Below, piece by piece: positions 3,251 to 47,390 of a stretch of 64,000 nt of DNA. The DNA is from Bacteroidota bacterium. GTDB lineage: Bacteria; Bacteroidota; Bacteroidia; UBA4408. Made by a program: the position numbers and the translations under genes. Each line of letters opens with the position of its first letter. Position 1 is the first letter of the stretch. The stretch lies in assembly GCA_046297395.1 (NCBI GenBank), contig JBKCNM010000032.1, forward strand, positions 36,312-100,311. The letters run 5' to 3'. The notes under the pieces were generated by a model. The model ran no database searches, had not been told where the DNA came from, and worked only from the letters and a program-made list of their open reading frames with translations.

Positions 3251-4174
3251 TCAGCGAAGCCTGCTTCTTCTGATCAGGTATTCCGAAAGTACAGGTTCAA
3301 AACCCCTGGCAACATCCACTTCCACAAGGTCTATTCTATATTGGGCACACCTGTTCCGGATGCTATCCATAAAGGCCTCCATACGGGACACATAACTTGC
3401 CCTTACCTCGGTAGGATTGAGTTGCATTTTTTCTCCGGACTCCAGATCCACAAACTTGTATGGCCTGTTCTCAAAAGCAAATGCACGCTCGGTATGCCGG
3501 TCGGCTACATGAAAAAGTATGACCTCATGCCGGTTATGCCTCAGGTGCTGAAGAGCTGAAAAAACTGACTCAAACTCGCCGCCTGTTTCGAGCATATCTG
3601 TGAACATGATTACCAGAGAGCGTTTGTGTATGGTTTCAGCCAGGCGATGCAGGGCATCATGTATATGGCTTTGTCCCTGCTGGGGGGTATTGAATTGTAG
3701 GGTAAACGGTTCGAGGTAACTGTAAATCAACTGTTGATGAATCATGCTCGAACGGGCAGGGGTTTCAATCTTAGTATCACCAGAAAAAATGGTTAATCCG
3801 AAGGCATCTCTCTGCGCCCTGAACAATTGGACAAGAGCTGCCATAGCCTTTACAGAGAAAGACAACTTGTTTTCGTCCTGCCAGAAATCACGAATAGCCG
3901 GATAATACATTGAAGGAGATACATCCAAGACAAGCCTGCAACGGAGATTGGTTTCCTCTTCAAACTGCTTTACAAACAATTTTTCTGTGCGGCCGTATAG
4001 CTTCCAATCTATATGCCGGGTTGGCTCTCCTGTATTGTAAAGGCGATGCTCAGCAAATTCAACTGAGAAACCATGGAAAGGACTTTTATGCAAGCCTGTG
4101 ATGAAACCCTCTACCACCTGCCTGGCGAGCCACTCCAACCTGGAGAACCGGTTTACTTCCTGTTTGTAAAGCAT
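3251..4174 (-). CDS. DUF58 domain protein (vWA-like, MoxR-associated family)
   Basis: MLYKQEVNRFSRLEWLARQVVEGFITGLHKSPFHGFSVEF is the hallmark DUF58 N-terminus. The ORF-track start at 4204 is a GTG extension; ATG at 4174 fits family N-termini. Confidence 0.8.
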   Translation of the reverse strand: MLYKQEVNRFSRLEWLARQVVEGFITGLHKSPFHGFSVEFAEHRLYNTGEPTRHIDWKLYGRTEKLFVKQFEEETNLRCRLVLDVSPSMYYPAIRDFWQDENKLSFSVKAMAALVQLFRAQRDAFGLTIFSGDTKIETPARSSMIHQQLIYSYLEPFTLQFNTPQQGQSHIHDALHRLAETIHKRSLVIMFTDMLETGGEFESVFSALQHLRHNRHEVILFHVADRHTERAFAFENRPYKFVDLESGEKMQLNPTEVRASYVSRMEAFMDSIRNRCAQYRIDLVEVDVARGFEPVLSEYLIRRSRLR

Positions 4175-33447: not shown

Positions 33448-36066
33448 TTGAAAAATCGTTTTATATACCGGTGTTTACTGACCATCATGCCGGTCGCCTT
33501 TCTGTTAGGGGCATGTTCTGTTAAAAAGAACACCCTTATTAGCCGCAATTTTCATCAACTTTCTACCCATTACAACGGCTGGTTCTACACCAACGAAATC
33601 ATCAATACAGCGGTGGAGAAAATGCAATCCTCACACAAGGACAATTACAATAAAATTCTTCCCCTCTATATATATGGAAGCATTGAGGACGGCAAAAGCA
33701 TGACTTCGGATATGGAAAAAGCCTTCAAGAAAATATCCACTTGTATCCAGCGTCATTCAATGTTAATCCGCGACCAGCAGTACAACCCATGGATATATGA
33801 TTCGTATATCCTTGTTGGAAAAACCCATTTCTACAAACACGATTACTTTGCCGGACTGGAGTCTTTTGAGTATGTATCTTCCAGAACCAAGGGGAAGCCT
33901 GTGCGTTATGAAGCCATGTTATGGATGCTCCGTACCTACAATGAAACCGGCCTTTTTTCGAGCAGCCAGGGACTCATTGACCTCATGGCGGAGCAAAAGA
34001 AAATTCCACGCAAATACCTTAAGGATTATTACGGATTGGTGGCAGATTACAACATTAAAATCCGAAATTATCCTCAGGCAGTGAAGGCGCTTGCCAAAAC
34101 CATTCCGCTCATGCGCCGCGGCAAGGAAAAGGCCAGGTTTTATTTTGTGCTCGCGCAACTTTACAGAAAAACGGGGCAGGCACAATTTGCGGCTACCTGC
34201 TACGGAAGAGCCATGAAAATGACACCCGACAACGAAATGCAATTTCAGGCGAAAATGAAACTTGCAGGCAGTGTGGCACCCGGTGGCAGCACCAAAGAGG
34301 TAAAAAAACTCCTTGCCCGCATGTTGAAAAGCGAGAAGTATAGCGATTTCAAGGACCAAATCTATTATGCTCTCTCTCAGGTGCACCATGCAGAAGCAAA
34401 TTTTGAAGAAGAAAAAACCGATCTGATGAACTCAGTAAAATACTCTCAAAAAAATAAAAATCAAAGGGGAATGTCTGCGCTGGCCCTCGCAAATTTGCTT
34501 TTTGAAACCGGAAATTATCCATTATCTGAAAACTATTACGACACAGCTATTGCGGCCTTACCCGCAGATTTTGAAGACATTGAACAGATTAAAAACAAGA
34601 AAGCAAATTTATCTGCGCTGGTAGGTCATATTCGAACCGCACAGACCCAGGACTCTCTGCTCAGACTTTCGGAGATGGGAGAAGAACAGAGAAATGTGTT
34701 CATCGACAAAATGATTGACAAACTCAAAAAGGAAGAAGAGCGGGCCATGCGGGAGCTCGAAGCCGGTCAAAATAACCAGAACGGAATATTTACGCCAACG
34801 GTGAGCAACAACAATCAACCAAGCGGCGCAACCTGGTATTTCTATAACCCTGCTGCCCTGAGCCTTGGCTTTACTGAGTTCATTAAAAAGTTCGGAAACC
34901 GAAAACTGGAAGACAATTGGAGGCGCAGCAACAAACCTGCCGTGGCAGATGAAAGCACACAACAAAACCCAGAAAAAGAAGGAGGCAAATCAGGCTCCAA
35001 TGCTTCCTCTGGAAGCAAAGACTCGACAATCACAACAAGCTCAGTAAAAACCCGCAAGGAATATCTTCAGGACATTCCTCTTACCCCTGAAAAAAAGAAA
35101 TCCTCCTCCAATTCTGTAAAAAATTCCCTGTTTAACATGGGTTTGATTTATCGTGAACAACTTGGTGACAACAGACATGCTGCTGAGGCATTTGAAAAAA
35201 TCATTAAAAAATTCCCGGGAGATTCCCTTGAATGCATCTGCTATTACTATCTCTTCAGAATTTATACCCAGCAAGGTGATGACAAAGAATCTGCCAAATA
35301 CAAGCAGCTCATTCTCGACAAATATGGACAAACAGAATATGCTGCGCTGATTAAAAATCCTGATTTTAATCTTGAGAAAAATGCCAAGCTGAATGCTTCG
35401 GATATTTATTACACAGAAACATTTGACCTGTTTAAAAATGAGCTTTATGACAGTTGTTACAAACGCTGCACGGTCGCCGATAGTCTTTTTCCAAAATCCG
35501 AAAATACCCCCAGATATGCCCTCTTGAAAGCCATGTGCAAAGGAAAGATAGGAGGTAAAGACGATATGATCCTGTCTTTAAAACAGGTGATGGCTGACTT
35601 TGGCTCTCATCCTGTAAAAAACAGGGCAGCCGAAATCATTGAACTTCTTGAGGGAGGCGCTAAGGATAAAAAAGATACCACTGCCAAAGAAATCTATCTA
35701 GATCCTACCAACTCAGCACAGCTCTTCCTGATGGTGATAAAAAATTCCTCAGGAGATCTTAACCACCTGAAAACAATCATATCTGAATTCAACGGAACCA
35801 ATTTTGGTTCATCCCAACTGAACACAGAAGACATGCTGCTGGGCAAGGAATACAAAGCAATTTCGGTAAAAGAATTCAAAGACATGGAAAAAGGCATGGT
35901 GTATTTCAACCAGATTAAAAACACCAAGGGCCTGACAGAAGGGATGAGCCCTGAAAACTTTATCATGCTGATGATTACTCCAGATAATTTGAGGATTTTG
36001 TTCAAGGAGAACAAGCCCCTCGAGTACAAAACTTTTTTTGAGAAAAAATACCCGAAAGGGATATAA
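33448..36066 (+). CDS. TPR-repeat lipoprotein, SprE/PorW-like (possible T9SS/gliding accessory)
   Basis: Lipoprotein signal peptide (…FLLGAC), N-terminal TPR repeats, central S/N/Q-rich low-complexity linker, 872 aa (SprE-sized). TTG start. Assignment to SprE/PorW is an inference. Confidence 0.7.
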   Translation: MKNRFIYRCLLTIMPVAFLLGACSVKKNTLISRNFHQLSTHYNGWFYTNEIINTAVEKMQSSHKDNYNKILPLYIYGSIEDGKSMTSDMEKAFKKISTCIQRHSMLIRDQQYNPWIYDSYILVGKTHFYKHDYFAGLESFEYVSSRTKGKPVRYEAMLWMLRTYNETGLFSSSQGLIDLMAEQKKIPRKYLKDYYGLVADYNIKIRNYPQAVKALAKTIPLMRRGKEKARFYFVLAQLYRKTGQAQFAATCYGRAMKMTPDNEMQFQAKMKLAGSVAPGGSTKEVKKLLARMLKSEKYSDFKDQIYYALSQVHHAEANFEEEKTDLMNSVKYSQKNKNQRGMSALALANLLFETGNYPLSENYYDTAIAALPADFEDIEQIKNKKANLSALVGHIRTAQTQDSLLRLSEMGEEQRNVFIDKMIDKLKKEEERAMRELEAGQNNQNGIFTPTVSNNNQPSGATWYFYNPAALSLGFTEFIKKFGNRKLEDNWRRSNKPAVADESTQQNPEKEGGKSGSNASSGSKDSTITTSSVKTRKEYLQDIPLTPEKKKSSSNSVKNSLFNMGLIYREQLGDNRHAAEAFEKIIKKFPGDSLECICYYYLFRIYTQQGDDKESAKYKQLILDKYGQTEYAALIKNPDFNLEKNAKLNASDIYYTETFDLFKNELYDSCYKRCTVADSLFPKSENTPRYALLKAMCKGKIGGKDDMILSLKQVMADFGSHPVKNRAAEIIELLEGGAKDKKDTTAKEIYLDPTNSAQLFLMVIKNSSGDLNHLKTIISEFNGTNFGSSQLNTEDMLLGKEYKAISVKEFKDMEKGMVYFNQIKNTKGLTEGMSPENFIMLMITPDNLRILFKENKPLEYKTFFEKKYPKGI

Positions 36067-36224
36067 AAAAGTGGGTAAGTACAATTTATCGCACCGCTCA
36101 ACCTCTTATCCTTGCTACATTCCTGTCCTGGGGAGTTTGGGAGGGAGCTGGTCGTAAACGACTTACCCGGCACAAAAATAGAAAACTTTTGTTGTCATGC
36201 AGTATTGTCTTGCATTACTTTGGT

Positions 36225-38338: not shown

Positions 38339-39001
38339 CTACACAATTTTTCCATCTTTTAGCATGATGGTTCTTTGCGTCATGGCTGCAATGTCTTTCT
38401 CGTGCGTAACTATCACAACTGTTTTTCCCTGATTATGCACCTGCTTCAATAAGTCCATCACTTCGTAGGAGGTCGTTGTATCAAGCGCTCCGGTGGGTTC
38501 ATCTGCGAGAATAAGTTTAGGATTCGAAATCAGCGCCCTTGCAATGGCGACTCTTTGTTTCTGCCCGCCACTTAATTCAGAAGGCAGGTGATTTGCCCAA
38601 TCTTTCAATCCAAGTTTGTCGAGTAACTCCATGGCAGTAAGATTTCTTTTTTTTCGGCTGACGCCACGGTAATACAGCGGAAGAGCAACATTTTCCTGTG
38701 CGGTTTTAAAATTCACCAAATTAAACGACTGAAAAACAAAGCCTATCAATTCGTTCCTGAGTTTGGCTGCTTTTGTCTCCGTTAAATCTTTCATGGCTTT
38801 TCCGTGGAGCAGATAATGACCCTGGTCATGAAAGTCCAACAAACCCAAAATATTCAGGAGGGTAGATTTACCTGAACCGCTGGAACCCATAATGGAAACC
38901 ATTTCCCCTTCTTGAATATGCAAGTCAATACCCTTGAGTACTTCCAAGGAATGATCTCCCGTGAAATAACTTTTTCGTATGCCCTCCAACTTTACCACCA
39001 T
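38339..39001 (-). CDS. ABC transporter ATP-binding protein (LolD/MacB-type)
   Basis: Walker [25 protein letters not shown], Walker B LILADEPT. Confidence 0.85.
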
Positions 39002-39104
39002 GCAAATAAAGGGCATTCAGGCCATCGATTCTTTAAAAATTTGTGACATTATGTAAAAAGCCGGGTAAAAGTTGGGAGGGTTTTATGATATAAGCCCATT
39101 TTCC

Positions 39105-39112
39105 TATATTTG
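39105..39112 (+). promoter_or_regulatory. Bacteroidota-type -7 promoter element TATATTTG for tRNA-Ser
   Basis: Matches TAnnTTTG, 7 nt upstream of the tRNA 5' end. T-rich -33-like stretch ~20 bp further upstream. Confidence 0.5.
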
Positions 39113-39119
39113 CGCGTCC

Positions 39120-39209
39120 GGTGAGGTGCCTGAGAGGCCGAAAGGAACAGTTTGCTAAACTGTCGTACGGGTAACCGTACCGAGGGTTCGAATCCCTCCC
39201 TCACCGCCA
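39120..39209 (+). tRNA. tRNA-Ser (anticodon GCT)
   Basis: Acceptor stem GGTGAGG/CCTCACC. Anticodon stem ACAGT…ACTGT with loop TTGCTAA. Long variable arm (class II). T-arm GAGGGTTCGAATCCCTC. Encoded CCA. Confidence 0.85.
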
Positions 39210-39216
39210 CCAAACA

Positions 39217-39241
39217 TCGCCCGAAAGGGCGTTATTTTTTT
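39217..39241 (+). terminator. rho-independent terminator after tRNA-Ser
   Basis: GCCCGAAAGGGC hairpin followed by a T7 run. Confidence 0.7.
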
Positions 39242-39345
39242 GGAGTGAAGTCAAGCTTGCTTGAACGAACACAAGAAAAAATAATACCTCACGAAGTGAG
39301 GTGTGATGTTTGGTGAAGCCTCCCCCAATTGGGGATCATGAAATC

Positions 39346-39391
39346 ATCCCTCCCTCACCGCCACCAAACATCGCCCGAAAGGGCGTTATTT
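39346..39391 (+). repeat. 46-bp perfect direct repeat of the tRNA-Ser 3' end plus terminator hairpin (copy 2; copy 1 at 39192-39237)
   Basis: Identical string ATCCCTCCCTCACCGCCACCAAACATCGCCCGAAAGGGCGTTATTT occurs twice, 154 bp apart. The intervening DNA contains a degenerate tRNA-like 5' half (GTGAGGTG…). Confidence 0.85.
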
Positions 39392-39450
39392 CCCATTAAG
39401 ACAGGATGTTCGTTAATGTAATATATCGGCAAACAAAAAGTGTTTGATTA

Positions 39451-39480
39451 AATAAAAAAAGCCGGACTATGTCCGGCTTT
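39451..39480 (-). terminator. bidirectional rho-independent terminator downstream of gldJ
   Basis: GCCGGAC-TAT-GTCCGGC hairpin flanked by an A-run and a T-run. Confidence 0.7.
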
Positions 39481-39497
39481 CTCTTTTTGCATTTCTG

Positions 39498-41042
39498 TTA
39501 TTTCTTCACATTTGCACCCAATCCTGCAGGGCTACCTACCCTGTCCATGGCGCAACGGAAACCGAGCCAATTGGTGGATTGTTTCTCATCAAGAAAGCGC
39601 CTTGTGCCGGGATTCATATAATACGCTCTGTCTTTCCAGCTGCCTCCTTTGTATACCCTGGCTTTGTCGTCAACCATGGATGATTTTGCGTATTCATACA
39701 TACCCATAGATTCTTTCTTTTCGGGATCAGGAACTGCTTTCCAGTCTTCAATCGCCTGCGACTGAATATCACCATCAAGATAATTGATGTTATCTGCTCT
39801 TTTGTAATTTCTACGCTCAGCGAGGTTGTCCTTCTCAACAGTTACATCTCTCCACTTCAACTGTCCGGGTATGCCAGTGATATTACCTGAGGAATCTGTA
39901 GTTACTTCTTCTAGTTTGGCATCAACTTTTCCTTCATCATCAAGAACCTTTGTCTTAAACACATTGCCTCTGAATGGACGGAAATCAGCTTTGTCTTCAC
40001 CACTGAGAGGACGATAAACATCCATCACCCATTCGCTTACATTGCCTGCCATGTTGTAAAGGCCAAAATCATTTGGCCAATAGGCAAGAACTGGAGAAGT
40101 GATATCAGCATTGTCGTTGAGCGCACTGGCAACACCCATATTGTCGCCTCTGCTTCTTTTAAAGTTGGCCATCATGCGACCAATATGAATCTCCTGATCG
40201 TTACGAACATAGTGACCATTCCAGGGATAAATACGACGCTCACTGATAATTTCATCGTTGGTATTACCTATGAAAGAGAGCGCTGCATATTCCCATTCCG
40301 CCTCGGTGGGCAGTCTGTAGTTAGGCAAAAGCATCCCATCTTCCATGCGTACTTTTCTTTCTCCGGCGCCTTTTGGATTGAGGTCAGGCAAAAGTCTTTG
40401 AACGGTTCCTTCATACTGTCCTGCAAGATAGGCATCGGTGTTAAAAGAGTTTTGGTTGGACCAATTCGCCGGATCCCATTGGAGGATTCCTTCTCTTACA
40501 AGAATCATTTCGTTTACACGATCTGTACGCCAGGTACAATAGTTGGAAGCCTGTAGCCAGTTTACACCAACGACGGGATAATTGGAGTAGGCGGGATGTC
40601 TCAGATAATATTCAACATAGGGTTCGTTATATCCGAGTCTTTCTCTCCATACCAAGGTATCGGGGAGCGCCTTTTTGAGCACTTCCGGAAAATCTGTTCC
40701 GTAAACACTTCTTAGCCAATAAAGATATTCTCTGTAGTTTGAGTTGGTAACCTCTGTTTCGTCGATATAAAAAGATGAAACAGTAACCTTTCTTGGGATA
40801 TTGTTCCAATCATACATCACATCTTGTTCAACCCTTCCCATGGTAAATGATCCGCCTTCAACAAGAACAAGTCCGGGACCTGTTTCCTGTTCCACATATG
40901 GAAGTTTTTCAAAACCACCATTGTCGGGAGAATTGTAATCCCAGCCTGTGGCATTGGATTTGTCTTTGCTGCAAGAGGCCAAGGTGATTGCAACGATGGC
41001 CAGGGAGAGCAACCCTTTGAACCCTGTGTTTTTCATTGTCAT
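39498..41042 (-). CDS. gldJ: gliding motility lipoprotein GldJ (FGE-sulfatase-like domain)
   Basis: Lipoprotein signal (…ITLASC). N-terminal region closely matches GldJ (…GLVLVEGGSFTMGRVEQDVMYDWNNIPRKVTVSSFYIDETEVTN…), i.e. a formylglycine-generating-enzyme-like fold. ~515 aa. Confidence 0.8.
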   Translation of the reverse strand: MTMKNTGFKGLLSLAIVAITLASCSKDKSNATGWDYNSPDNGGFEKLPYVEQETGPGLVLVEGGSFTMGRVEQDVMYDWNNIPRKVTVSSFYIDETEVTNSNYREYLYWLRSVYGTDFPEVLKKALPDTLVWRERLGYNEPYVEYYLRHPAYSNYPVVGVNWLQASNYCTWRTDRVNEMILVREGILQWDPANWSNQNSFNTDAYLAGQYEGTVQRLLPDLNPKGAGERKVRMEDGMLLPNYRLPTEAEWEYAALSFIGNTNDEIISERRIYPWNGHYVRNDQEIHIGRMMANFKRSRGDNMGVASALNDNADITSPVLAYWPNDFGLYNMAGNVSEWVMDVYRPLSGEDKADFRPFRGNVFKTKVLDDEGKVDAKLEEVTTDSSGNITGIPGQLKWRDVTVEKDNLAERRNYKRADNINYLDGDIQSQAIEDWKAVPDPEKKESMGMYEYAKSSMVDDKARVYKGGSWKDRAYYMNPGTRRFLDEKQSTNWLGFRCAMDRVGSPAGLGANVKK

Positions 41043-41130
41043 ACAATGATGTTTTGAATTAAAACGCAAATTAATGGTATTTATTGCTGATTATCAAGTG
41101 CCTTTTTAACGGAGAGATCCGACAAAAGGT

Positions 41131-42099
41131 TTAGAAAGTGGGGCAATTAACTGTGTTAAATACCTTTCTTTTCTTTCTGCAATAGAATTGAAAAGAGGCT
41201 GTTAACTCGTGAGAGCCATATCCACCACGGAGTTTGGAGATGGTCACATCATAGCTGTATCCTATTTTGAAGATGTTGTATCTGAAGCCAACAAGTGTAA
41301 TCAGGGCATCTCTGTTTCTGTACCAGAGACCACCTACGAATGGTCCTTTGGTAAAATACATTCCAAGATTGAGCTGTTGAAATGTCCCTTGCATCTGATA
41401 AATCACATTGGGAGATAAGTTGATGTCATCGTCCTCGCCCACAGGTATAATGGCCCCAATGTGACCGGTATACTTTCGGTAGAGGCGGGAATTATTGGCG
41501 CTTCCTGTCTTGATAAAAGCTTCATCCGGTTCTGCAAGATGGTGTACTGCTATTCCGCCAAAGAAATTGTTCCCAAAACCCATAATTCCTGCTGAAAAAT
41601 CTGCAAAGGAGCGATTGTTTCTGGCGAATCTTTCGTTGGTATTATAAATGAATCCATAACGGGAATGAATTTGATCAGGAAAGTTCATTCGGGAAGGATC
41701 AATGGTGCGCTGGACAAAGGTTGCTTGTATGGCTGCACGAATTGAAAATGAACGATTTACATTGATTTGATAGGAGTAAATACCGGATACTGAATTGGTA
41801 TTGATGGTTCCATTTCCCATTCTGTCGCTGTAGGCAATTACGCCAATACCACCGCCCAGATCATCAACATGTCTGTCGAATGTAGCTGCGTAGGTCACAT
41901 AGTTACCAATCACTCCGGGCCATTGGTTGCGATAGGTAGTAACCACTCTGGGACAACGGACAGAGCCGGCAAATGCAGGATTTAGGAAAAGGGGGTTGGC
42001 ATAAAATTGCGAAAAGTGCAAATCTTGTGCCTCCACTTTAAAAGTGATTGACTGAACAAGAATTACCAGTGGCAACAGGATTTTGATTCCCTTCATCAT
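41131..42099 (-). CDS. T9SS membrane protein, PorP/SprF family
   Basis: Signal peptide, then the family hallmark QDLHFSQFYANPLFLNPAFAG. ~320-aa beta-barrel-like body. ATG at 42099; the ORF-track N-terminal extension is antisense to porU. Confidence 0.8.
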   Translation of the reverse strand: MMKGIKILLPLVILVQSITFKVEAQDLHFSQFYANPLFLNPAFAGSVRCPRVVTTYRNQWPGVIGNYVTYAATFDRHVDDLGGGIGVIAYSDRMGNGTINTNSVSGIYSYQINVNRSFSIRAAIQATFVQRTIDPSRMNFPDQIHSRYGFIYNTNERFARNNRSFADFSAGIMGFGNNFFGGIAVHHLAEPDEAFIKTGSANNSRLYRKYTGHIGAIIPVGEDDDINLSPNVIYQMQGTFQQLNLGMYFTKGPFVGGLWYRNRDALITLVGFRYNIFKIGYSYDVTISKLRGGYGSHELTASFQFYCRKKRKVFNTVNCPTF

Positions 42100-42202
42100 T
42101 TTTTTCGAAACAACAAATTTATTATTTTTTTGGTTAGACAATAACATATGTCGAATTTCGTTCTGATAAATCACAAAAAAAGTTGATGTGCTCTCGAAGT
42201 TT

Positions 42203-45200
42203 ATGGTTTTAAAACCTTCCATTGTCAATATTATTGTGTGCTGCCTTTGCGTTTCTGCAGGTTCGATGCTGGCACAAACCAAGGTTAAAATCACTTTGAA
42301 CTGGGAAAAACCTGCAATGATGGGTGTTGAAGGCTTCATGAAGCCGGGCATGAGGTTCAGAGATTTTTGTCAGCCTGTTCAGATTAACAACTGCTGGATT
42401 CCTGAATATCAGCGCAGCCTCACCAATTTCCCTGCACATGGGTCATCGCAATTGATTAATCCGATTGTTGAACCCCTCACCGAAGAGGAGCAGCTTACAC
42501 TCACAGGCTGCAATGAGCTTCCGGAAAATTTTGAGGTTTTTACTAGTACCGGTTTAGAACGAGGAAAAAACATCCAGTTCATCAGGATGATACCAATCCG
42601 ACAGCAGAAAGGCAGAAATCCCGAAAAGCTAAAGAGTGCCACATTGCTATTTAGTAATCCCCAACCTACCGGTGAACAGAAAAGAGTGCGCACATTTGCC
42701 ACATCATCTGTTCTTAAGCAAGGCAAATGGTATCGGATTGGAATCACATCCGATGGCGTTTATAAATTGGATTATCGTTTCATAAAAAACACATTGGGTG
42801 TAGATCCTACTCAGATTAATCCACAACACATCCGGGTGTACGGCAATGGTGGAGGCCTGCTGCCTTTTTTAAATTCTGTCAGTCGTCCCGACGATCTTGT
42901 TGAAAATGCAATCAGGGTAGAAGGTGAATCTGATGGAATCTTCGATTCCACAGATTTCGTCTGGTTTTTTGGGCAAGGTCCGCATGTTTGGGTTCCCTCA
43001 GCAGGTTGTATTCCCCTCTCTCATCGTCTGCACTATTTCAGTGACACCAGCTATTACTACATCAATTTCGATACAGGTCCGGGTAAACGGATGAACAGAA
43101 CACCCTACAACGACAACAGTACATCGGTTAGCATTACAAAATTTGATGAATTTCAATACTACGAAAATGAAGCTGTAAACCTACTCTTATCAGGAAGGCG
43201 TTGGTTTGGAGAGAAGTTTGAAAATATTCCTGAATACACCTTCGATTTCAATTTTCCGAACATCAGCACAAACGATTCTGCAACAGTAAAGGCAGTTGTT
43301 ATGGCAAGATCAAAACCACAAAGCAGCTTCACACTTTCCTGCCAGAATTCCTCAAGAGAGATAAAACCTCCCATCATTGACCCCGGGGTTTACTACAGTG
43401 CTTATGGTAGAATTGACTCAGGATGTGTGAAATTGCTGCCAAACCAGCAAAAGCTTACTGTTAAGTTAGCTTTCAATAAAAACCCCTTGTTTGCCTCTGC
43501 CGTCGGCTACCTCGATTACCTTGAGGTTCATGCAATCAGACAATTAAGGATGTTCGGCAATTATCTTCAATTTCGGAGTCTGAGCACAGTTGCTCCCGGG
43601 CAGCAAGGAAAATTTATCATTGGTGATGCTTCAGCCACAAGCATTGTTCTAGATGTAACAAATCCACTTGAACCTTTTTTAATTGAAGGCAGAGTGGATG
43701 GCAATCAGCTGGTTTTTCATGCAGATGTTTCCGCCCTCAGGGAATATGTTGCGTTTAACCCTTCATCCAATGCATTAAAAACGCCGGTGTATTTTGGCGA
43801 AACATCCAATCAAGACTTGCATGGCAGTAATCCTGTTGACTTGATCATGGTTGTTCATCCGCTTTTTTGGGAACAAGGCCTCCGAATCAAAAGATTGCAT
43901 GAAACCAATGATGGTTTGAGGGTACTCATGGCAACTCCGCAAATGATTTACAACGAATTTTCATCAGGCAAACAAGATATCACTTCAATCAAATCTCTTG
44001 CAAAATTGTTTTATGACAAAGCTGCCACCCCCGCTGATCAGCCCAAATACCTTTTGCTTTTCGGGGATGCCAGCTATAACAACAAGAATCGCACAAAAAA
44101 CGGAAATACGGATTTCATTCCCAGCTACCAAAGTGAAGAATCTCTGGCCATGATTTTTTCATATGTGAGCGATGATTATTTTGGCTTGCTCGACGACAAT
44201 GAAAGCGACATGCTTTCAAGTCCCATAGACATTGGCATCGGTCGTTTGCCGGTTAAAACGGCCGAGGAAGCAAAAAATGTTACTGATAAAATCATTCAGT
44301 ATGAAACTTTAAAATACCCCGAGAATGCGCTGCAATCCAATAATTGCAACAGCACAGGACTTGCGGTGAATGGCGATTGGAAGAACACGGTTTGTTTTGT
44401 AGCCGACGACCAGGACAACGGCATTCACATGATGGATGCCGACCGATTGGCAACATTTGTGGATACTACACACAAAGTATACAACATCGAAAAAATTTAT
44501 ACTGATTTTTACAAACAGTTCACCAGTGCCGGTGGACAGAGATATCCTGATGCCAATAGTGCCATTAACCAGCGTGTACAGCGTGGTGCTTTGATTGTAA
44601 ATTACACAGGACATGGGAGTGAAGCAGGATGGGCACAAGAAAGAATACTGGAGGTAAAGGATATTCTCTCATGGAAAAACGAAGAGAGGAATCCGTTTTT
44701 TGTGACAGCCACCTGCGAGTTTTCCAGATTTGATGATCCACTGAGAACATCTGCAGGTGAGGATGTAATCCTTCAGGCAGGGGGTGGCGGAATTGGTTTG
44801 CTTACTACCACAAGACTGGTGTATTCCGGGCCCAACTTTACCCTGAACAACAATTTTATCTCCAACGCATTTGTGATTGATTCTACCACCGGAAAATTTT
44901 ATACCCTTGGCGATTTAACCCGCATCACAAAAAATATCAGTGCTACGCAGAATCCCAACAGCAACAACCACCGCAATTTTACCCTACTTGGTGATCCTGC
45001 AATGCGACTCAATTATCCCCAGAAAAAAATCACCACAACATCCGTGAAACTGATACCATCATCAAGTACTTCAGACACACTAAGGGCTTTGAGTAAAGTG
45101 GAAGTGACAGGATATGTAACAGATGAAAACGGGATCAAATTGAGCAATTTTAACGGGTTTGTTTACCCCAGCATATTCGATAAAAAATCCATCATCCGCA

Positions 45201-46114
45201 ACCTCAGGAACGACAGCACAGGTTCTGACCAAACGCCTCGGAGAAACTTTTCCGTTCAAAAAAACATTTTATACAAAGGAAAGGTGAGTGTTACCAATGG
45301 AGAATTCAGTTTTGTATTTGTGGTACCTAAGGACATTGCCTATAATTTTGGGAAGGGTAAAGTGTCCTATTATGCCATCTCTAAAAATATAGATGCAAAT
45401 GGTTATTTTGATGATTTTATCATTGGGGGAACAAATACAAATGCCCCCACTGACAACTCCGGACCTGAAATTAAATTATTTATGAATGATGATAAGTTTA
45501 TAGCAGGGAGTATTACCGATGAAAATCCGCGACTGATTGCTTACATCAGTGATGAAAACGGAATCAATACGGTCGGCTCAGGTATCGGCCATGATATTGT
45601 TGCTTCACTGAATGAGAACAATCAAAGCAGCATTGTACTAAACGACTATTACCAGTCTGATCTGAACAGTTACCAATCTGGCAGTATTCAATATCCTTTT
45701 AAAGACCTCGCGGAAGGCAATTATACTTTGTCGCTTAAAGTTTGGGATGTATACAATAATTCCGGCAAAGGCAAGACAGAGTTTACAGTTGCTCGCTCCG
45801 CCAAGCTTGCCCTCGATCATGTGATGAATTATCCGAATCCGTTTACCACCCGCACCCGTTTTCTTTTTGAGCACAACAGACCTTGTGAGCCACTGGATGT
45901 GCTGATTCAGATCTTTTCAGTTTCAGGAAAGCTGGTAAAAAGCATCGAGTCCAGCATCCAATGTGAAGGGTATCGCTCAGACAAAATAGAATGGGACGGA
46001 AGAGACGATTTTGGAGATAAAATCGGAAAAGGAGTATATATATACCGAATACAGGTTACTGCTTCAGATGGAAACAGCGCCGAAAAATTTGAAAAACTTG
46101 TGATCTTAAATTAA
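42203..46114 (+). CDS. porU: T9SS sortase PorU (C25 gingipain-family peptidase)
   Basis: Signal peptide. C25 peptidase core with catalytic His (NYTGHGSE) and Cys (TATCEFSRFDD). C-terminal CTD-like beta-sandwich. ~1300 aa, typical of PorU. Immediately followed by porV. Confidence 0.8.
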   Translation: MVLKPSIVNIIVCCLCVSAGSMLAQTKVKITLNWEKPAMMGVEGFMKPGMRFRDFCQPVQINNCWIPEYQRSLTNFPAHGSSQLINPIVEPLTEEEQLTLTGCNELPENFEVFTSTGLERGKNIQFIRMIPIRQQKGRNPEKLKSATLLFSNPQPTGEQKRVRTFATSSVLKQGKWYRIGITSDGVYKLDYRFIKNTLGVDPTQINPQHIRVYGNGGGLLPFLNSVSRPDDLVENAIRVEGESDGIFDSTDFVWFFGQGPHVWVPSAGCIPLSHRLHYFSDTSYYYINFDTGPGKRMNRTPYNDNSTSVSITKFDEFQYYENEAVNLLLSGRRWFGEKFENIPEYTFDFNFPNISTNDSATVKAVVMARSKPQSSFTLSCQNSSREIKPPIIDPGVYYSAYGRIDSGCVKLLPNQQKLTVKLAFNKNPLFASAVGYLDYLEVHAIRQLRMFGNYLQFRSLSTVAPGQQGKFIIGDASATSIVLDVTNPLEPFLIEGRVDGNQLVFHADVSALREYVAFNPSSNALKTPVYFGETSNQDLHGSNPVDLIMVVHPLFWEQGLRIKRLHETNDGLRVLMATPQMIYNEFSSGKQDITSIKSLAKLFYDKAATPADQPKYLLLFGDASYNNKNRTKNGNTDFIPSYQSEESLAMIFSYVSDDYFGLLDDNESDMLSSPIDIGIGRLPVKTAEEAKNVTDKIIQYETLKYPENALQSNNCNSTGLAVNGDWKNTVCFVADDQDNGIHMMDADRLATFVDTTHKVYNIEKIYTDFYKQFTSAGGQRYPDANSAINQRVQRGALIVNYTGHGSEAGWAQERILEVKDILSWKNEERNPFFVTATCEFSRFDDPLRTSAGEDVILQAGGGGIGLLTTTRLVYSGPNFTLNNNFISNAFVIDSTTGKFYTLGDLTRITKNISATQNPNSNNHRNFTLLGDPAMRLNYPQKKITTTSVKLIPSSSTSDTLRALSKVEVTGYVTDENGIKLSNFNGFVYPSIFDKKSIIRNLRNDSTGSDQTPRRNFSVQKNILYKGKVSVTNGEFSFVFVVPKDIAYNFGKGKVSYYAISKNIDANGYFDDFIIGGTNTNAPTDNSGPEIKLFMNDDKFIAGSITDENPRLIAYISDENGINTVGSGIGHDIVASLNENNQSSIVLNDYYQSDLNSYQSGSIQYPFKDLAEGNYTLSLKVWDVYNNSGKGKTEFTVARSAKLALDHVMNYPNPFTTRTRFLFEHNRPCEPLDVLIQIFSVSGKLVKSIESSIQCEGYRSDKIEWDGRDDFGDKIGKGVYIYRIQVTASDGNSAEKFEKLVILN

Positions 46115-46145
46115 GCATTACTCAAAACCATATCTTTGTCAGACC

Positions 46146-47390
46146 ATGTTGAATCCTCTTTTTCCTTTGAAAAAAACCGCTAAAATCACCATCCTTTTTT
46201 TAATGGCTGTTGGTGGTTCCTTTGCACAAAAAGCCACAAATACCCAGCTCGCCAGTGATAAGCTTCAGATTAATACCATCACCACAGCTGTTCCTTTTTT
46301 ACTCATCGGGCCGGATTCAAAGGCGGGCGGAATGGGTGAAACAGGAGTTGCTACCGAAGCAGATTGTAATTCCATGCACTGGAATCCTGCAAAGTATGCG
46401 TTTATAGAAAAACAAAGTGGGTTCTCGCTTTCTTATATTCCATGGTTGAGACAATTGGTAGACGACATCAATCTTTCTTATTTGTCAGGATATTACAAGG
46501 TGGGAAAAGACCAGACACTGGCTGCTTCCCTTCGCTATTTTTCTCTCGGAAATATCATGTTCACTGATAATAATGGAACGAACATCAGGGAATTCCGTCC
46601 CAATGAATTTGGTTTGGATGTGGCATACTCGCGCAAACTTTCGGACCGTGTTTCAGGTGGATTAGCCCTTCGATATGTCTATTCCAACCTCACAGGAGGC
46701 ATCAATGTGGCAGGTGCAAATACAAAAGCCGGCCAATCGGTTGCGGCAGATGTATCATTCCTTTATCAAAACACCGATATGGAAATAAATGGAAACAAGA
46801 GTAGACTTGCCTTTGGTGCAAACATTTCCAATATCGGTTCAAAGATGTCCTACACCACTACCCTTCGCAGAGACTTTATTCCAGTTAATATGAGACTTGG
46901 GGGCTCTTTCCGACTGAACATGGACCAGTACAATGCAATTGCCATTCATCTTGATTTCAATAAACTTTTGGTACCTACACCTCCTGTTTATGAAGTGGAT
47001 GCAAGCGGAAAAATTGTTACCGGCCCGGATGGTACTCCTAACATTGCTGCCGGAGAAAATCCACACAGGTCTTTGGCTTCAGGAATTTTCGGTTCATTTT
47101 CTGATGCTCCCGGTGGCAGCCGAGAGGAACTGAGGGAGGTAATGACAAATGTGGGATTGGAATATTGCTACGACAACCTTTTTTCTTTCCGTACAGGCTA
47201 TTTTCATGAAAATGTTACGAAGGGTAACAGACAGGTTTTTACAGTAGGATTTGGCATTCGCTACAGCTCCTTTAACTTCGATGCATCCTATTTAATTCCC
47301 ACCAACCGACAAAACAGTCCACTGAACAATACCTTTCGGTTCACACTGGGATTTGATTTCGGTGAAAGCAAAAAGAAATCCAAAGAATAA
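46146..47390 (+). CDS. porV: T9SS outer-membrane shuttle protein PorV (LptO)
   Basis: Signal peptide. Conserved PorV motif …VPFLLIGPDSKAGGMGETGVA…. 414-aa beta-barrel. Genomic pairing with porU. Confidence 0.8.
   Translation: MLNPLFPLKKTAKITILFLMAVGGSFAQKATNTQLASDKLQINTITTAVPFLLIGPDSKAGGMGETGVATEADCNSMHWNPAKYAFIEKQSGFSLSYIPWLRQLVDDINLSYLSGYYKVGKDQTLAASLRYFSLGNIMFTDNNGTNIREFRPNEFGLDVAYSRKLSDRVSGGLALRYVYSNLTGGINVAGANTKAGQSVAADVSFLYQNTDMEINGNKSRLAFGANISNIGSKMSYTTTLRRDFIPVNMRLGGSFRLNMDQYNAIAIHLDFNKLLVPTPPVYEVDASGKIVTGPDGTPNIAAGENPHRSLASGIFGSFSDAPGGSREELREVMTNVGLEYCYDNLFSFRTGYFHENVTKGNRQVFTVGFGIRYSSFNFDASYLIPTNRQNSPLNNTFRFTLGFDFGESKKKSKE

Follow-up and report, generated by a model that had tools for sequence, protein, structure and literature searches.

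What does a direct repeat of the 3' end of a tRNA gene record? Such repeats are routinely taken as proof of integration, and the question is raised by a locus in a 64,000-nucleotide stretch of a Bacteroidota bacterium genome (GenBank assembly GCA_046297395.1, contig JBKCNM010000032.1, positions 36,312 to 100,311 of the forward strand; hereafter the window), in which the end of a tRNA-Ser(GCT) gene and the sequence that follows it occur twice. An initial annotation of this DNA had read the pair as the probable attL/attR scar of an excised or decayed integrative element, or else as a replication-slippage duplication. Our analysis indicates that neither foreign DNA nor a dead tRNA was duplicated, but a quasi-palindromic module that is native, in a clade of Bacteroidota, to the 3' flank of this tRNA. 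The reading that we consider probable is an in-place tandem duplication of this native, conserved and structured module, which would be transcribed and act in RNA.

The tRNA-Ser(GCT) gene, with an encoded CCA, occupies positions 39120-39209 of the forward strand (ARAGORN; Rfam RF00005, 55.8 bits). Two exact copies of the 46-mer ATCCCTCCCTCACCGCCACCAAACATCGCCCGAAAGGGCGTTATTT are present, at 39192-39237 and 39346-39391, which confirms the perfect direct repeat of the initial annotation together with its 154-bp start-to-start spacing; no third match exists in the 64-kb window at up to 3 mismatches (0.00 expected from 100 shuffles). The first copy comprises the final 18 nt of the tRNA, CCA included, and 28 nt of trailer and terminator hairpin with a T run, and the perfect identity of the two copies thus extends 28 bp beyond the tRNA, across the terminator. 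What appears as a 46-bp repeat around a 108-bp spacer is the overlap in a head-to-tail array of 1.3 copies, whose 154-bp unit has its start in the tRNA T-loop. Tandem Repeats Finder (TRF) calls no tandem repeat in the window, because just 1.3 copies are present there.

The spacer had been described as a decayed tRNA copy, and this description does not hold. ARAGORN reports one tRNA only, and the Rfam tRNA model RF00005 has no match in 39238-39345 at E<=10. Both the motif GTGAGGTG (39296-39303), which had been taken for the tRNA 5' acceptor sequence, and the hairpin CCTCACGAAGTGAGG (39287-39301) are present as claimed; the former, however, is the 3' strand of the latter (hairpin C below) and is replaced by unrelated sequence in other lineages, and we rejected it as an acceptor remnant. 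The reported 14-bp perfect palindrome TCCCCAATTGGGGA is absent: the actual sequence is CTCCCCCAATTGGGGA, of which only the 12-bp CCCCAATTGGGG (39323-39334) is perfect. In both copies, the tRNA trailer CACCAAACATC has its perfect reverse complement in an 11-nt segment of the spacer, GATGTTTGGTG (39305-39315).

Related loci were collected from contigs that encode the neighboring ATP-binding cassette (ABC) protein, and by matching the right-end pattern of the unit against one-genome-per-species, metagenome and viral collections. On contigs that encode an identical ABC protein (L001, L002, L006) the arrangement is the same, with a few single-nucleotide polymorphisms in the spacer; the L003 contig continues from the second 46-mer into a further unit, and many contigs end inside the repeat. 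Pattern matches with units directly 3' of tRNA-Ser(GCT) were obtained in L012/L015, L014, L016, L017, L019, L022, L024 and L029, and in none of these pattern-found loci does a gene lie between the tRNA and the copy. Viral contigs gave no match to the right-end pattern, while genomes and metagenomes gave only tRNA-adjacent mini-versions and chance matches in high-GC DNA.

Copy number varies among these relatives, from 1 to 3.3 units. L024 carries 3.3 units of 155 bp (TRF), whereas L035, from the same species but another sample and with identical flanks, carries a single one; L019 has at least 2 units, identical in their outer parts and diverged around hairpin A. A head-to-tail repeat whose copy number differs between relatives fits the slippage-type duplication that the initial annotation had listed as its other option.

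The module also looks vertically inherited. It is found at the orthologous ABC-tRNA locus where the ABC protein is 94% and 78% identical; in the latter case (L036) the ABC-tRNA synteny is kept around a strongly diverged module, which a covariance model built from the other units, with L036 excluded, matches at 30.5 bits (E 2e-4). When occupied and empty tRNA-Ser sites were compared, as had been proposed, all syntenic relatives turned out to carry the module (L001, L002, L003, L006, L015, L024, L035 and L036, a thin sampling of lineages), none of them with an empty site or an integrated element. This is essentially the pattern that had been named beforehand as favoring a simple local duplication: relatives share the duplication, they lack an integrated element at the tRNA, and the repeat is unique locally, within the 64-kb window.

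The unit is also under sequence constraint. Between the window and L035 the unit is 96.8% identical, against 80% at third codon positions of the ABC gene, and between the window and L015 the two values are 89.1% and 66%. The 100 nt beyond the last terminator are unalignable (47-49% identity). Since the identity of the unit exceeds that of third codon positions, the unit is conserved and is not a decaying scar; it evolves far slower than synonymous sites.

Constraint extends to the fold (coordinates in Table 1). The order of the parts is identical in every unit: trailer, terminator with its U run, hairpin A, A-rich tract, hairpin C, the segment complementary to the trailer (IR'), C-rich block and hairpin D. 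Trailer and IR', the two strands of a helix that we call P1, differ in sequence in almost every lineage and retain their complementarity. Their own pairs have a mean duplex energy of -23.9 kcal/mol (-24.4 kcal/mol in the window), compared with -9.9 +/- 2.3 kcal/mol for pairs formed between unrelated lineages, and z-scores against shuffles range from -4.9 to -8.7. RNAalifold helices on a MAFFT alignment have 92.7% of their cells paired, against 82% in shuffles and 35-43% with slid partners, and 12 pairs have changed on both sides, all scored on the same alignment from which the structure was derived. Hairpin A is paired in 100% of cells, with compensatory changes in 3 pairs across lineages, and hairpin D, with the stem GGGAUC...AUCCC, in 98.7% (11 units), its inner pairs covarying. 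At the position of hairpin C other lineages keep a hairpin with different sequences (GGCAC/GTGCC, GGCA/TGCC), and in L016 the per-unit fold of P2, the helix between the terminator T tract and the A-rich tract, is a near-perfect pairing of about 27 bp. The C-rich block, written GCCUCCCCC in the unit-by-unit comparison, is conserved across units; in L036, the most divergent relative, it reads GCCTCCCTCACC, a copy of the acceptor 3' strand. The covariance model R1 scores positions 39208-39361 at 132 bits, and the predicted read-through transcript folds with a z-score of -6.5. In the predicted fold of 39120-39395, the tRNA 5' acceptor strand pairs equally well with the distal and the genuine 3' strand, giving two tRNA-like conformers.

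Table 1. Features of the tRNA-Ser(GCT) gene and its 3' flank; positions are those of the window.
Feature	Position	Strand	Basis
-7 promoter box TATATTTG (Bacteroidota-type, TAnnTTTG), just upstream of the tRNA	39105-39112	+	Regular expression on both strands; sole box in 39000-39520
tRNA-Ser(GCT) with encoded CCA	39120-39209	+	ARAGORN; RF00005
Complete tandem unit; starts in the 3' part of the tRNA T-loop and ends in the T-arm-like hairpin's loop	39192-39345	+	154-bp spacing; TRF on L024
Repeat copy 1: last 18 nt of the tRNA, trailer, terminator hairpin	39192-39237	+	Exact repeat
P1 5' strand, the tRNA trailer CACCAAACATC	39208-39218	+	Complementary to 39305-39315 over all 11 nt
Intrinsic terminator T1: hairpin CGCCCGAAAGGGCG (39218-39231) and T tract	39218-39241	+	Terminator scan
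Hairpin A TCAAGCTTGCTTGA, tip of the longer helix P2 (T tract with A-rich tract)	39251-39264	+	Alignment, per-unit folds
A-rich tract, pairs with the terminator T tract (P2)	39273-39286	+	Per-unit folds
Hairpin C CCTCACGAAGTGAGG, CCTCAC-GAA-GTGAGG; followed by a T run on the minus strand, terminator-like there	39287-39301	+	Terminator scan
P1 3' strand (IR') GATGTTTGGTG, complementary to the trailer	39305-39315	+	Complementarity, alignment
Conserved C-rich block GCCTCCCCC	39318-39326	+	Alignment A1
Hairpin D GGGGATCATGAAATCATCCC, T-arm-like; the second tRNA 3' copy starts with its 3' strand	39331-39350	+	RNAalifold
Repeat copy 2, truncated second unit: tRNA 3' copy 39346-39363, trailer, T2 hairpin 39372-39385	39346-39391	+	Exact repeat, terminator scan

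No Rfam family matches the unit in a full scan, either at gathering scores or at E<=10, where the best hit is Chlorobi-1 (12.5 bits, E 1.8). Two candidate features within the unit were rejected. An internal promoter finds no TAnnTTTG box within the units of any lineage on either strand (regular-expression search), and a sigma-70 scan gave no discrimination. The 11-codon ATG open reading frame (ORF) of the window unit is not kept in frame in L014.

On one side of the tRNA is a divergent ABC ATPase gene (38339-39016, minus strand) and on the other a convergent gene with an FGE-sulfatase domain (39498-41036, minus strand); no integrase lies near the tRNA in the window. The latter gene opens a type IX secretion gene cluster that adjoins the tRNA (39498-47390) and contains the FGE-sulfatase-domain (GldJ/PorK-like), PorP/SprF and C25 peptidase (PorU-like) genes. 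At 39458-39480, a strong 10-bp hairpin (AAAGCCGGAC-TAT-GTCCGGCTTT) with A and T runs on its sides is conserved in L035; it is the bidirectional terminator of the convergent FGE-sulfatase-domain gene and is distinct from the repeat module. Elsewhere in the window, a small signal recognition particle RNA of the Bacteroidales type (RF04183, 89 bits) lies at 36069-36175 on the minus strand and overlaps the mechanically listed ORFs 35694-36173 and 35809-36084. This RNA and the type IX secretion genes mark the window as Bacteroidota DNA.

Some sequences were set aside. L007 (GCA_046303495.1, JBKCGK010000167.1) joins a window-type ABC-tRNA flank to an L014-type unit and downstream flank, both belonging to another organism; if real, this would mean that the module had been replaced horizontally. 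The contig is probably chimeric, assembled across the identical 87-nt tRNA; it ends 15 nt after the copy, and we did not use it as evidence. Look-ups by flanking proteins, in Salibacter (P0006) and with the neighbor homologues P0124 and P0131, led to loci that are non-syntenic or lack the tRNA.

The closest known parallel is found in another phylum. The tyrT repeats of E. coli and their RtT RNA (genes rttR and tpr) were described in 1991, and two later papers, both citing Bosl and Kersten 1991, report that tRNA processing sets RtT RNA free from the tyrT transcript and connect this RNA with the response to amino-acid limitation (PMC4986893; PMC2965389). In our analysis, the E. coli tyrT/tyrV locus (L149) contains 3.1 copies of a 178-bp unit (TRF), each ending in the last 19 nt of tRNA-Tyr; these units score 133-138 bits with RF00391, the Rfam annotation being RtT. 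The E. coli array is reportedly of 178 bp x 3.14, is said to undergo Rho-dependent termination within the repeats, and reportedly lost one tyrT copy by unequal crossing-over.

The two systems share their layout. In both, head-to-tail units of similar size (178 bp x 3.1 in E. coli; 154 bp x 1.3 in the window and up to 3.3 in L024) stand directly downstream of a tRNA gene and on its strand (here 39120-39209, then 39192-39345), and the unit reproduces the last 18-19 nt of the tRNA with its CCA. In both, a segment pairs with the T-stem part of the copy, as the RF00391 closing helix GGGGAAGGAU/AUCCUUCCCC and here as hairpin D (GGGGAU/AUCCCU), which is the shorter of the two; and a T-stem-5'-like sequence and small GNA-loop hairpins lie just 5' of the copy. 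They differ in phylum and in the tRNA concerned, tRNA-Tyr in E. coli and tRNA-Ser and tRNA-Pro here. Units of E. coli and of the window have no sequence similarity (pairwise z 1.3), and RF00391 has no match at E<=10 in 39000-39520 or in L036, L017, L039 and L022. The intrinsic terminator and the long-range trailer/IR' helix of the window units are absent from the RF00391 consensus structure, and no protamine-like ORF is conserved in the window. By these comparisons the window module is an analogue of E. coli RtT and does not belong to its family. The module may also be likened to E. coli 3'ETS-leuZ, a functional RNA made from a tRNA 3' trailer; that RNA is a short trailer ending at an operon terminator and not a tandem repeat with tRNA 3' copies.

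The tRNA-Pro case comes from one genome. L017 (the metagenome-assembled genome STL-BAC3) has, in addition to its tRNA-Ser unit, a second module that the covariance model detects at 58.9 bits (E 2e-10) directly after a tRNA-Pro(TGG) gene, with about 1.7 module copies (L017:3122-3480 for the tRNA and its array). It has its own trailer/IR' pair (CAAACAACTCGAAAAGCC/GGCTTTTCGAGGTGTTT), a terminator, hairpins, an A tract and a C-rich block; its hairpin D has a stem that matches tRNA-Pro (CAGGAT...ATCCTG), and after a copy of the tRNA-Pro 3' end, AATCCTGCCACCCCGA, comes a partial second unit. In L017 the Ser and Pro units are clearly homologous (pairwise z 8.1). The tRNA-Pro copy shows that the module can be transferred to another tRNA and re-matched to it. 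Such a copy is beyond what simple local duplication accounts for, and a mobile-element reading therefore keeps a modest probability.

From these observations we infer how the array may have arisen and what it may do. Unequal crossing-over or slippage between the ATCCC of the tRNA T-loop/T-stem and the matching 3' strand of hairpin D would create the first duplication, and once two copies are present homologous recombination could expand or contract the array. Some transcripts from the tRNA promoter would run past the first terminator, and their extension, folded into the conserved helices, would have its end at the second terminator or the second CCA; tRNA-processing enzymes could then release a structured RNA of about 150-190 nt, as with the RtT RNA of E. 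coli tyrT. Given the lack of an internal promoter and the strong constraint, the module most plausibly works in read-through transcripts of the tRNA gene, either as an RtT-like RNA processed from them or by determining how their 3' end is formed. The small stable RNA that had been suggested for this locus is plausible by analogy.

Several observations weigh against this tandem duplication of a flank module acting in RNA. In every unit a credible intrinsic terminator precedes most of the module, and only read-through transcripts could therefore hold it. The strand signal is slight: 14 G.U against 3 A.C cells weakly favor the tRNA strand, and the folding energies of the plus and minus strands are indistinguishable. 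Template-switch correction of quasi-palindromes, a process acting on DNA, can likewise produce compensatory changes in close inverted repeats, so that covariation is no proof of an RNA function. The distal edge of the last partial unit differs among three related species, and more than one event is therefore needed. In the window's own species more than one unit is known from a single contig end (L003), possibly an assembly loop. Finally, the tRNA-Pro module of L017 requires a copy-and-adapt process that goes beyond plain local duplication.

The last point suggests a broader hypothesis, which we regard as rather unlikely on present evidence. The modules would form an unannotated Bacteroidota RtT-like family that colonizes tRNA 3' ends (Ser-GCT, Pro-TGG), copying the stretch from T-loop to CCA and re-matching the hairpin to the host tRNA, either as a regulatory RNA processed out of tRNA precursors or as a cargo-free miniature element of a new, tRNA-end-targeting kind. 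If this were true, the family and E. coli RtT would together mean that such tRNA-end repeats recur across phyla by a common mechanism.

Integration is the alternative that the repeat itself calls to mind. The unit would be a cargo-less derivative retaining only attP (related to NBU2-like elements or prophages, or resembling the remnants of CIMEs or tycheposons), the two copies would be attL and attR, and arrays would result from serial integration or from unequal exchange mediated by an integrase acting in trans. The likeness is real: a direct repeat of the tRNA 3' end, starting near the T-loop where many tRNA-specific integrases place their crossover, brackets a spacer downstream of an intact tRNA-Ser, which is the classical att signature. 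Genes for tRNA-Ser are used at their 3' ends by NBU2 (PMC8816746) and by many elements in IMG/VR, and serial integration leaving arrays of partial tRNAs is documented for tycheposons (10.1101/2020.12.28.424599). The T-stem-like inverted repeat of hairpin D matches the host tRNA, tRNA-Pro included, and in L014, L016 and L029 the trailer after the last copy is unlike the unit trailer, as would be predicted for an attR.

We nevertheless consider integration unlikely. The scar proposed by the initial annotation finds no integrase or cargo between the copies in about 20 related loci, and the right-end pattern scans of genomes, metagenomes and viral contigs gave no integrase, cargo or longer version. 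An empty site is absent among the thinly sampled syntenic relatives. Unit types follow host synteny and show no horizontal movement; the intervening DNA is a conserved and vertically inherited chromosomal flank, under strong sequence constraint, and the identity of the copies runs 28 bp past the tRNA and through a terminator. The copy is also shorter than in verified att fragments, which hold the whole T-arm or more before the element DNA begins. The tRNA-Ser 3' fragments from IMG/VR have all or most of their T-loop (...TTCG) directly upstream of AATCCC, and many read GGGTTCG, including the T-stem 5' strand, whereas the repeat units begin at (A)ATCCC.

Gut Bacteroidales provide a parallel array and a genuine element at the same tRNA. 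BLAST against phage and plasmid collections returned matches to the tRNA 3' end only, plus one bacterial contig, MT837328.1 (L039). This sequence comes from human faeces, is labelled 'Bacteriophage sp.' and carries tRNA-Ser(GCT), a PcfJ-like gene and an autotransporter; it looks like a mislabelled chromosomal fragment of a gut Bacteroidales, and its identical neighbor protein is found on contigs of up to 367 kb. A different tRNA-Ser(GCT) is followed there by exactly 2.0 copies of a 206-207-bp unit, which begins in the T-loop and includes CCAAAC, a terminator, a degenerate version of the tRNA 3' end in inverted orientation, several hairpins and GATGTTTTGTGAG (the window counterpart being GATGTTTGGTGAAG). 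Among the distinct contig places recovered, one has one copy and four have two: L138, of the same gut species, carries the module once, the second tRNA 3' copy being absent, while L137, L140, L141 and L142, like L039, carry it twice, as exactly 2.0 copies of 207 bp. The array is also present in a related gut species (L143), where the hairpins show compensatory changes.

In L139, L098 and L115, also of this species, the same tRNA is occupied by an integrated element that carries tyrosine integrase and Bro-N genes and supplies the trailer and terminator that follow the tRNA. At the ends of contigs L103 and L129 its attR, a copy of about 70 nt of the tRNA, can be recognized; next comes the chromosomal CCAAA. 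The element stretches lie at L139:1-2000 and L098:4300-4700, and contigs L103 and L129 break off just behind attR, where the repeat module starts. The genuine element thus inserts between the tRNA and the module, and its architecture means that real att structures at this site are unlike the repeat. The three states of the site (one copy, two copies, element) argue that the gut module is chromosomal flank and that its duplication is a polymorphic local event. A module that exists without duplication in L138, and that a true element leaves downstream of itself, is not what an integration scar would give.

We hold it to be more improbable still that the module is a non-autonomous palindromic element, resembling miniature inverted-repeat transposable elements, that targets tRNA 3' ends, duplicates its T-loop-to-CCA target and is mobilized by some enzyme. 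It would account for the homologous modules behind two unrelated tRNAs of L017, each bearing its host tRNA's 3' end and a hairpin D stem fitted to it, and for the organization of the module as a long quasi-palindrome with inverted repeats. These repeats, however, are not terminal, IR' lying 45 nt from the unit end; they differ in sequence from lineage to lineage, unlike ends recognized by a transposase, and a target duplication of 14-18 bp fits no known bacterial transposase. No dispersed copies were seen: covariance-model matches in about 770 kb of related loci all adjoin a tRNA, and the one further match in the window is weak, on the minus strand and on the unit itself (17 bits, E 0.11). The distribution looks vertical, and no candidate enzyme was seen. 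Such an element would also be in keeping with the recurrence, here and in E. coli, of C-G-closed GNA triloop hairpins beside the tRNA copy. GNA triloops closed by C-G are unusually stable in single-stranded DNA. We noted such hairpins (C-GAA-G, C-GCA-G, GCGAAGC) in the window at 39287-39301, at L017:2020-2035 and 3330-3345, in L036 (a tRNA-sense hairpin D) and in L149.

It is equally improbable that the module is simply a structural DNA or terminator feature, in which an inverted duplication of trailer and terminator yields back-to-back convergent terminators that insulate the tRNA from the convergent downstream gene and the tandem copy is neutral. In its favor, a 700-bp stretch holds 8 terminator-like sites where 1.1 are expected (among them T1 and T2, both plus-strand, and, on the minus strand, hairpin C with its T run), the downstream gene of the window is convergent, and mirrored terminators would give the quasi-palindromic layout. 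Against it, the convergent gene has its own strong bidirectional terminator, the downstream gene of the gut species is co-directional with the tRNA, and the conserved C-rich block, hairpin D and the kept complementarity of trailer and IR' would be left unexplained.

The tandem duplication of a native flank module has consequences for the annotation of genomic islands and att sites, as the local duplication of a conserved flank gives the same signature as the tRNA 3'-end repeat from which integration is commonly deduced. The gut Bacteroidales, with a naturally polymorphic array and a real element on the same tRNA, offer a ready experimental system. The modules described here, which Rfam lacks, bring RtT-like tRNA-distal repeats to a new phylum and to new tRNAs. 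They provide an analogue of RtT in a distant phylum, and the covariation and constraint observed there argue for a function.

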